Part shown: positions 40,201 to 43,200 of the stretch, piece by piece
How the letters are laid out: each line of letters begins with the position of its first letter
Position numbering within the stretch: the stretch's first letter is position 1
Assembly (NCBI RefSeq): GCF_003018255.1
Contig: NZ_CP027440.1
Origin: Escherichia coli
GTDB lineage: Bacteria > Pseudomonadota > Gammaproteobacteria > Enterobacterales > Enterobacteriaceae
Direction: 5' to 3' (one strand)
Length of the DNA: 64,000 nucleotides
Made by a program: the position numbers

Positions 40201-43200
40201 GAAATCTTCTGCCAGCGCTTCAATGCGTTTGTCCTGAGACAGCATCTGCTCAATACGGCTCGGCAGCGCCTGCAGACCATGCACAATGTCATGTTCAATG
40301 GAGGCATCCAGACCTTTCAGGCGAGACAGCTTCGCCACCAGCATCAACAGCACAGTTAACTGAGTGGTGAATGCTTTAGTGGATGCCACGCCGATTTCCG
40401 TACCGGCGTTGGTCATCAGCGCCAGATCGGATTCGCGCACCAGAGAAGAACCCGGAACGTTACAGATTGCCAGCGAACCAAGGTAACCCAGCTCTTTCGA
40501 CAGACGCAGGCCCGCCAGGGTATCCGCGGTTTCGCCAGACTGTGACAAGGTGATCATCAGGCTGTTACGACGCACGGCAGATTTGCGATAGCGGAATTCA
40601 GAGGCGATTTCGACGTCGCACGGAATACCTGCCAGCGATTCAAACCAGTAGCGGGAAACCATACCGGAGTTATAAGAAGTACCACAGGCGAGGATCTGAA
40701 TATGCTCAACCTTCGACAGCAGTTCGTCGGCGTTCGGTCCCAGCTCGCTTAAATCAACCTGACCGTGGCTGATGCGCCCGGTAAGGGTGTTTTTGATCGC
40801 GTTCGGTTGTTCGTAGATCTCTTTCTGCATGTAGTGACGGTAAATACCTTTATCGCCCGCGTCATATTGCAGATTGGATTCAATATCCTGACGTTTTACT
40901 TCCGCGCCAGTTTTATCGAAAATGTTTACCGAACGGCGAGTGATTTCCGCAATATCGCCCTCTTCAAGGAAGATAAAGCGACGAGTCACTGGCAACAGCG
41001 CCAGCTGGTCAGAAGCGATAAAGTTTTCGCCCATGCCCAGACCAATCACCAGCGGGCTACCAGAACGTGCCGCCAGCAGGGTATCCGGGTGACGGGAGTC
41101 CATGATCACTGTACCGTACGCACCACGCAGTTGCGGAATAGCACGCAGAACTGCCTCACGCAGAGTACCGCCTTGTTTCAGCTCCCAGTTCACCAAATGT
41201 GCAATCACTTCGGTGTCGGTTTCAGAAACGAAGGTATAGCCACGCGCTTTTAACTCTTCACGCAGCGGTTCATGGTTTTCGATGATGCCGTTATGCACCA
41301 CCACAATGTGTTCAGAAACATGCGGATGCGCGTTAGCTTCTGAAGGTTCACCGTGGGTCGCCCAGCGAGTATGAGCAATACCGGTGCCGCCATGCAGAGG
41401 ATGTTCTTCCGCTGCCTGAGCCAGCATCTGTACTTTACCGAGGCGACGCAGGCGGGTCATATGACCTTCTGCATCAACAACGGCCAGACCGGCAGAGTCA
41501 TATCCGCGGTATTCCAGACGACGTAAACCTTCAAGAAGGATTTCTGCTACATCACGTTGCGCGATCGCGCCAACAATTCCACACATAGTTTTTGATTCCG
41601 ATTTATATCGTTGTCGGTCAACCTGTATGCCCGTTTTTTCGGGCGCCCCGAGCCTTGTAGAGAGTGGGGTTATTTTTATAGTTACTGCTTGTGGGCGGGA
41701 GATTATGTTATCTCCTCATCCCATATGACCGGATTTCCCAGCCAGAATTACTTTTTCTTTACCGGACGACGCCAGCCTTCTTTTTGCGACTGCGGCACAC
41801 GGCTGATTGCCAGAGCATTTTCGCCGACATTACGCGTCACAGTTGTACCCGCAGCAATGGTTGCGCCTTTGCCTACCGTTACCGGGGCCACCAGCTGAGT
41901 ATCGGAACCAACAAACACATCGTCGCCGATAATGGTCTTAAATTTATTCGCACCGTCGTAGTTGCAGGTAATGGTTCCCGCGCCGATGTTAACGTTATCG
42001 CCAATTTCCGCATCGCCCAGATAAGTCAGATGCCCGGCTTTCGAGCCTTTACCCAGACGCGCTTTTTTCATCTCAACGAAGTTACCGACGTGTGCACCTT
42101 CCAGCAACTCAGCACCAGGACGCAGACGGGCAAACGGGCCAATGGTACAGGCCGCTGCCAGATTCGCATCTTCCACAACGGTATACGGACTGATTTCGCA
42201 ATCATCGCCAATCACGCTGTTTTTAATCACGCAACCGGTGCCGATTTTCACGCGATGACCGAGAGTCACGTTGCCCTCGATGATAACGTTAGTATCAATT
42301 TCAACATCGCGCCCGTGAGTAAGCGTACCGCGCAGATCAAAACGCGCCGGATCGCGCAGCATAACGCCTGCTAACAGCAGTTTTTCAGCCTGTTCAGACT
42401 GGTAAACGCGCTCCAGTCGGGAGAGTTGCAGGCGGTTATTCACGCCTTCTACTTCGCTTAAACGTTGCGGATGAACGGCGACGATTTCACGCCCTTCCTG
42501 ATACGCCAGCGCAATAATGTCGGTGATGTAGTATTCACCCTGAGCGTTATTGTTGGTCAGCTTCGCCAGCCAGCGTTTCATATCTGCGCCGTTGGCAATC
42601 AGAATGCCGGTGTTGATCTCCTGAATCTGACGCTGCTCGTCGGTGGCGTCTTTGTGCTCAACAATGCCGGTAACTTTGCCGTTTTCACGGGTGATACGTC
42701 CATAACCGGTCGGATCATCCAGTTTTACCGTCAGCAGACCAATGCCACCCTGCGGTTTAGCATCACGCAGACGCTGGAGTGTTTCGACAGAGATCAGCGG
42801 CACGTCGCCGTAGAGCATTAAAATGTCTTCATCATCGGCAAAGAAAGGTGCGGCCTGCTGCATCGCATGACCTGTACCCAGCTGTTCTGCCTGAAGCACC
42901 CAGTTCAGGTTGTCATCTTTCAGCGCCTGTTTAAGCAGATCGCCGCCGTGACCGTAAACCAGGTGAACGTGCGCTGCGCCTAATTCATTCGCAGCATCAA
43001 TGACATGCTGAACCATCGCTTTCCCGGCAAGGGTATGCAGCACTTTCGGAAGATCGGAATACATGCGCGTGCCTTTGCCTGCGGCAAGGATCACTACGCT
43101 CATAGCATTATTCAACATACGCGTCCTGACTGTAATTTGAGAACGAATTTAAACCGCTTCACCTTGAAAAAACTACATTTTTTTCATCGTGAAATGGACA

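Follow-up and report, generated by a model that had tools for sequence, protein, structure and literature searches.

The glmU-glmS spacer of an Escherichia coli genome is very probably the known RNase E-processed, GlmZ-activated glmS leader

The glmS leader of Escherichia coli is among the best-characterised cases of activation by an sRNA, and also of genes of one operon being differentially expressed, and its mechanism has been published (PMC4152352, PMC2267818, PMC1885654, PMC2377431, PMC3439879). [quoted passage not shown] The major 5' end was mapped between AAAAAGUGA and UUCU (PMC1885654), and the position of the processing site is also given as -161 (PMC3439879), with a glmU-glmS spacer of 161 nt in the species and two stem-loops 3' of the cut that were suggested as a possible aid to RNase E recognition (PMC4152352). 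Further downstream, a stem-loop masks the Shine-Dalgarno (SD) sequence, and residues 150-157 and 163-169 of the sRNA GlmZ pair within the leader stretch from -41 to -19. This pairing was proven by compensatory mutations (leader C-27G/G-36C with GlmZ G155C/C165G), the mutated C-27 and G-36 lying outside of the masking stem (PMC2267818). Besides, two (ARN)3 motifs of the K-12 leader bind Hfq, ARN-2 being essential (PMC4152352, PMC3439879). The rpoS leader, the target of DsrA, RprA and ArcZ, follows a similar scheme: its translation initiation region is also closed off by a self-inhibitory structure, the inhibitory arm is the pairing partner of an sRNA that depends on Hfq, and A-rich Hfq sites (AAN) are needed further upstream (PMC2267818, PMC3439879). 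The gene, the sRNA and the sequence are unrelated, however, and the rpoS leader comes from a promoter whereas that of glmS is released by RNase E from the transcript of an operon. In Gram-positive bacteria glmS is under ribozyme control. The glmS ribozyme (RF00234) shares with the E. coli leader the regulated gene and the GlcN6P feedback signal, but it acts by self-cleavage, whereas the E. coli leader is controlled in trans by sRNAs and has no sequence or structure match to it.

We have analyzed the corresponding region in a stretch of 64,000 nucleotides of an E. coli genome (assembly GCF_003018255.1, contig NZ_CP027440.1), here called the window. The GlmU and GlmS calls rest on NCBIfam equivalog models with scores far over the cut-offs. 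The gap between both genes was exactly the one given by a previous sequence-only reading of this DNA, 161 nt (41587..41747, 46.6% GC), which is unusually long for a spacer between genes of one operon. K-12 MG1655 has a spacer of the same length, with the same flanking genes on the same strand. Among 5426 complete E. coli genomes searched by megablast, 5424 carry the glmUS spacer region as a single copy, and the one of strain SCU-172 was 100% identical to ours. No plausible sense-strand ORF was found within the spacer.

Aligning the window with K-12, as that reading had proposed, revealed clear conservation. Only eight positions were substituted: seven are among nucleotides 1-52 of the spacer and the other belongs to the glmU stop codon. 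In the spacer, 153 of 161 positions are the same. The last 109 nt of the spacer plus the first 30 nt of glmS were 100% identical, and these 109 nt cover G-36, C-27 and the rest of the GlmZ site, the candidate (ARN)3 motifs (AGCAGUAAC and AAAAAUAAC, 41689-41669), the SD and the SD-masking stem. In other words, all the published leader elements located 3' of stem-loop 2 have the same sequence here and in K-12 (Table 1). From this identity over the functional elements we conclude that the spacer is, with very little doubt, the known glmS leader, processed by RNase E and activated by GlmZ with the help of Hfq. The leader in this strain is thus not novel but already explained. Two proposals of the sequence-only reading agree with the K-12 literature, namely the processing of the glmUS transcript at the glmU stop, which was mapped in K-12 (PMC1885654), and the glmS 5' UTR as a GlmZ target, a characterised site that is unchanged here. 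What the present analysis adds is a map that places the elements on the window and sets right the roles of the hairpins, and population data that locate the constraint along the spacer.

Table 1. Elements of the glmU-glmS region, in window coordinates and in the direction of transcription
Feature	Position	Strand	Description or basis
glmU	41748..43118	minus	ORF listing and NCBIfam NF006986, 941.6 bits
glmU stop codon	41748..41750	minus	UAA here, UGA in K-12
Expected RNase E processing site	about 41748/41747	minus	from K-12 mapping
Stem-loop 1	41726..41744	minus	7 bp, loop GAAAU; directly 3' of the processing site
Stem-loop 2	41692..41723	minus	GGGAUGAGGAGAU-AACAUA-AUCUCCCGCCC
Candidate (ARN)3 Hfq motif	41681..41689	minus	AGCAGUAAC; placed from the sequence
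Candidate (ARN)3 Hfq motif	41669..41677	minus	AAAAAUAAC; placed from the sequence
Near-invariant 24-nt block	41646..41669	minus	CCCCACUCUCUACAAGGCUCGGGG; CCCC/GGGG stem closing a 16-nt conserved loop
Small GC hairpin	41629..41644	minus	GCCCG-AAAAAA-CGGGC; core of the GC-rich segment discussed in the text
Alternative or extended inhibitory helix	41580..41628	minus	predicted; about -42..-34 (AUACAGGUU) with -4..-1 and +2..+7 (AACU, UGUGUG)
GlmZ pairing site	41605..41627	minus	-41..-19; K-12 identity and PMC4152352, PMC2267818
GlmZ-paired block ACAGGUU	41620..41626	minus	-40..-34
GlmZ-paired block GACAACGA	41608..41615	minus	-29..-22
Published SD-masking stem	41592..41621	minus	UUGACCGA (-35..-28) with UCGG-AA-UCAA (-15..-6)
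Shine-Dalgarno core GGAA	41596..41599	minus	-13..-10; from spacing and stem
glmS start codon AUG	41584..41586	minus	sequence, ORF listing, NCBIfam
glmS	39757..41586	minus	ORF listing and NCBIfam TIGR01135, 898.6 bits

If the K-12 mechanism operates in this strain, the cut at or after the glmU stop would free a glmS mRNA that begins with 161 nt of leader. The leader stretch -42..-28 would then be paired with the region where translation starts, through the SD stem and perhaps also over the start codon. This self-pairing would keep basal translation of glmS low and the mRNA unstable. When glucosamine-6-phosphate becomes scarce, full-length GlmZ would accumulate. Helped by Hfq, which the A-rich (ARN) motifs further upstream would recruit, it would pair with -40..-34 and -29..-22, opening the inhibitory structure and thereby allowing GlmS synthesis and stabilising the mRNA. 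By analogy with the K-12 experiments we infer that Hfq binds the leader, and that GlmZ activates glmS, in this strain as well. No glmZ gene is present in the 64-kb window (in K-12 it is found some 73 kb from glmS). Since glmZ would lie outside of the window, its presence in this genome is deduced from its conservation throughout the species, GlmZ being at least 99% identical in 5424 of the 5426 complete E. coli genomes. A Salmonella CLIP-seq paper mentioned glmS in its reference list only.

Within E. coli the spacer is sharply divided in two parts, a polymorphic 5' third and 3' two-thirds that are nearly fixed. Of 5425 E. coli records, 5285 had the 3' 107 nt at 99% identity or more. For the 78 nt that run from the end of glmU through its stop codon and stem-loop 1 and take in most of stem-loop 2, just 437 records reached at least 99% identity with the window, and in 4145 the identity of this 5' part was 90-95%. 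In eight sampled E. coli alleles, stem-loop 1, the area around stem-loop 2 and the stop codon, which is either UAA or UGA, were the places where substitutions clustered. Further 3' the variation was limited to small indels, near the conserved block and in the A-run that forms the GC hairpin loop, and all eight alleles had an invariant GlmZ site and SD stem.

Prediction of the GlmZ-leader duplex recovered the same two paired blocks described in K-12, with -20.5 kcal/mol, an energy not significantly better than those of shuffled GlmZ linkers (z -1.04, 73/500 as good). This calculation was limited to the single-stranded linker of GlmZ, the full-length RNAduplex run with the 194-nt leader giving a meaningless duplex of 180 nt. 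Regarding the masking of the SD, we reconstructed the published inhibitory stem from the text of PMC2267818, in which C-27 and G-36 are not part of the stem. It is AU-rich and weak (-3.9 kcal/mol) and appears as the third-best suboptimal fold; the minimum of the local region -42..+3 is a different fold of -4.8 kcal/mol (z -1.0, with 34/200 shuffles as good). The thermodynamic modelling therefore gives only marginal support to a stable structure over the SD, which is how far folding bore out the hairpin that the sequence-only reading had placed there. A longer region, -45..+10, has as its minimum free energy fold the extended helix of Table 1 (-11.3 kcal/mol, z -1.90, 8/200 shuffles), which is predicted to enclose the SD region and to bury the start codon. 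For the full leader, the partition function had G-13 as well as U+2 and G+3 paired and left G-12, A-11 and A-10 mostly free, so that the GGAA core is mostly unpaired in the ensemble (mean unpaired probability about 0.7). The start codon is, in silico, more occluded than the SD.

When the GlmZ site was blocked in the partition function, the predicted accessibility increased from 0.52 to 0.83 at -15..-6 and from 0.38 to 0.66 at the AUG. The anti-antisense logic holds for either fold, because both left arms are shared with the GlmZ site. Comparing 34 leaders with their shuffled versions, we found no general occlusion of the SD (accessibility 0.63 vs 0.61) and a weak effect at the start codon (0.32 vs 0.42, Wilcoxon p = 0.02), in sequences that are phylogenetically non-independent. 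The case for SD masking and for GlmZ pairing is hence built on the K-12 experiments together with the sequence identity.

The inhibitory role had been given in the sequence-only reading to a GC-rich segment, the reverse complement of 41654..41615, which was thought to form the hairpin that sequesters the ribosome-binding site of glmS. Three parts make up this segment: the 3' end of the conserved block (GGCUCGGGG), the GC hairpin and AUACAGGUUGACCG, which is the 5' half of the GlmZ site. It is true that AUACAGGUUGACCG overlaps the left arm of the inhibitory stem, and to this extent the proposal was right. It is also true that a stable hairpin lies within the segment (-9.6 kcal/mol, z -2.58), but its 3' end is 43 nt upstream of the AUG and it is paired with itself (41644-41629) in all the folds, with the SD region pairing elsewhere. 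Folded alone, the 40-nt segment was no better than shuffles (z -0.10). From the self-pairing, the distance to the AUG and this value we conclude that the GC hairpin does not sequester the ribosome-binding site. Moreover, the published hairpin uses -35..-28 with -15..-6 (PMC2267818), and in Leclercia and Citrobacter an insertion of ~120 nt parts the GC hairpin from the GlmZ site and the SD. Direct masking by the GC-rich hairpin itself is, in our opinion, highly improbable. Rather, the GC hairpin is a conserved structure with a covarying stem that is distinct from the SD-masking stem, as the comparison with other genera indicates.

For this comparison we scanned 80 loci with relatives of the GlmU C-terminus. 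The glmU-glmS gap measured 107-448 nt in 36 Enterobacterales loci and 3-18 nt in Orbaceae and one Kangiellaceae genome; in the loci of Vibrio, Aeromonas, Shewanella and Pasteurellaceae there was no glmS within 780 nt of glmU. The spacers of related species had been described as showing 'some sequence homology' (PMC1885654). We found a common ordered core in 35 of the 36 Enterobacterales spacers. It starts with an A-rich stretch, followed by the block CCCCA(N)CUCU(CU)ACA(A)GGCUCGGGG, a short hairpin with an A-rich loop (in about 30/35) and the region of the GlmZ site (ACAGGUUGACCGACAAC, ACAGGUCAGCGACAAC, UCAGGUCACUGACAUCGA and similar). Next comes, in most genera though not in E. coli, E. albertii or Kluyvera, one more hairpin, and the core ends with an SD of the AGGAA or CGGAA type.

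The short hairpins orthologous to the GC hairpin have diverse stem sequences, and nevertheless 28 of 32 distinct sequences folded with z < -1.5 (mean z -3.9). A covariance model built with the block and the hairpin had one match per spacer in the window and in the 35 other Enterobacterales, and no further match in the 224 kb searched. Three of the five pairs of the GC hairpin were changed on both sides, as counted in the alignment fitted to the covariance model, which leans towards the modelled structure (a MAFFT alignment was not used for the pair counts because the 3' arms of the GC hairpin were out of register). The covariation of the whole model, hairpin plus block stem, was 0.209 vs 0.099 in shuffled alignments (0/500 as high) and above all the slid controls.

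The block CCCCACUCUCUACAAGGCUCGGGG varied only slightly over the 35 other Enterobacterales spacers, being more conserved than the GlmZ site itself. Its CCCC/GGGG stem is almost invariant, and for this reason the pairing is neither supported nor opposed by covariation. Complementarity of the block to GlmZ or GlmY was not significant (z -0.44 to +0.79). The glmS-leader literature examined, which comprised neither Kalamorz 2007 nor Urban 2007, states no function for it, and the block as a literal string had no match in a literature text search. The ACAAGG of the loop brought to mind a CsrA site, a candidate that we dropped because the GGA core is GGC here. The block is therefore a lead within the leader, with a role that we did not find described in the literature examined. 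Tentatively, block and hairpin could serve to dock a further factor on the glmS mRNA (a protein, an sRNA or a ligand), or they might help architecturally the Hfq-mediated annealing of GlmZ, although we consider this rather unlikely.

Such a strongly conserved block, beside covarying hairpins and across an entire order, might also be taken as the mark of a metabolite-sensing RNA that controls glmS directly, be it a glmS ribozyme, for which the Gram-positive bacteria offer the precedent, or a riboswitch of a new kind. We give this idea very little credit. No Rfam family, the glmS ribozyme included, matched at E<=1 in 39000-44000, and RF00234 was not found at its gathering score in the whole window. 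In-line probing of the complete E. coli spacer with Glc6P and GlcN6P detected neither structural change nor self-cleavage (personal communication in PMC1885654), and the sensing of GlcN6P is already explained by the GlmZ/GlmY/RapZ cascade (PMC4152352).

At the 5' end of the spacer, the AU-rich context of the processing site is kept, with AAAAAGUAA before UUCU in the window vs AAAAAGUGA in K-12, and by analogy we infer that RNase E cleaves at the glmU stop in this strain too. The stop codon at the cut departs from K-12 (UAA instead of UGA), which may bear on cleavage. Among the other genera sampled the commonest glmU stop was UAA, and UGA appeared in 1/36. Two separate transcription units, the first ending at a terminator behind glmU and the second starting within the spacer from a promoter specific to glmS, would fit the stem-loops found immediately 3' of the glmU stop, and room was left for such a promoter as the source of the residual glmS mRNA in rne mutants (PMC1885654), but this arrangement is most improbable given that the spacer hairpins have no following U-run, that a consensus scan of 41300..42100 detected no promoter-like or terminator-like site on either strand, as fits the co-transcription of both genes, and that a 3.5-kb glmUS co-transcript builds up when RNase E is inactivated (PMC1885654).

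The 194-nt leader stretch as a whole was well structured (-57.9 kcal/mol, z -2.93, 1/200 shuffles as good). Stem-loop 1 (-9.0 kcal/mol, z -3.31) differs from its K-12 counterpart in the loop and by one C-G to U-G change that keeps the stem. It was found in the same register in seven of the eight E. coli alleles (7 bp in six of them, 6 bp in one), maintained through changes of C-G to U-G or of G-U to G-C. Stem-loop 2 is the most stable local structure of the spacer (-14.8 kcal/mol, z -5.05, 0/200 shuffles); one change separates it from that of K-12, and the stem-loop is retained here. It was present in all eight E. coli alleles and is recognisable in the spacers of other Enterobacteriaceae.

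A 24-nt block in the glmU-glmS spacer (CCCCACUCUCUACAAGGCUCGGGG) exceeded the GlmZ pairing site in conservation and showed only slight variation in 35 other Enterobacterales spacers (loci L010-L037, L040-L042, L044, L061, L065 and L066 of those compared). No significant complementarity of this block to GlmZ or GlmY was found, nor any Rfam family for it, and the accessible literature on the glmS leader states no function for it.

Within E. coli, variation was concentrated at the glmU stop codon and the adjacent stem-loop 1 (41722-41750, minus strand), as seen when comparing the window with seven other E. 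coli alleles (L001, L004-L009). The stop codon was either UAA or UGA, and the stem of stem-loop 1 was kept by wobble pairs and compensating changes. A 78-nt stretch that includes this hot spot was found at 99% identity or more in only 437 of 5425 E. coli records, against 5285 for the adjoining 107 nt.

In other genera the spacer also varied in length. In Leclercia and Citrobacter, an inserted segment of ca. 120 nt, apparently ERIC-like to judge by the consensus of these elements, separates the GC hairpin from the GlmZ site. REP-like palindromes appear immediately after glmU in several genera (5' parts of the L011, L013, L016 and L017 spacers). Large insertions are tolerated by the leader at both of these places. 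Besides, most Enterobacterales have an additional hairpin of 4-8 bp that follows the GlmZ site and precedes the Shine-Dalgarno sequence (L011-L013 and L015-L044, about -45 to -20 from the glmS AUG). E. coli, E. albertii and Kluyvera do not have this hairpin and retain only CGAU-AUAA-AUCG.

In the minimum-free-energy fold of 41580-41628 (minus strand), positions -42 to -34 pair with -4 to +7, so that the glmS start codon, and not the Shine-Dalgarno core, is predicted to be buried. Several other families show complementarity between GACAUCG, which forms the 3' half of their GlmZ site, and a (C)GAUGU sequence at the start codon. Together, the E. coli fold and this complementarity suggest that the inhibitory structure of the glmS leader may include occlusion of the start codon.

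Regarding the neighbouring DNA, immediately downstream of glmS the window has ORFs annotated in strain SCU-172 as long polar fimbriae genes, whereas in K-12 the next gene is pstS. These ORFs are an island at the glmS-pstS junction, presumably the region that holds attTn7. On the other side, the interval between atpC and glmU contains a match to the enterobacterial sRNA STnc410, which runs opposite to glmU and overlaps the expected glmU promoter region. Two further Rfam matches were found elsewhere in the window.

Coordinates of the features described (window positions unless a locus is named)
Feature	Position	Strand	Location or evidence
24-nt block	41646-41669	-	glmU-glmS spacer
Insertion of ~120 nt	L012 ~1345-1465; L013 ~1415-1535; L025 ~1290-1340		Between GC hairpin and GlmZ site
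lpfA-O113 and lpfB-O113 ORFs	38099-39450	-	Annotation of SCU-172, a 100%-matching strain
STnc410	43202-43359	+	Full-length Rfam match, 182.7 bits, E 3e-42
AsdA (antisense RNA of dnaA mRNA)	6540-6620	+	Rfam gathering-score match, 101.9 bits
ES036/CssrF	1021-1063	+	Rfam gathering-score match, 56.9 bits
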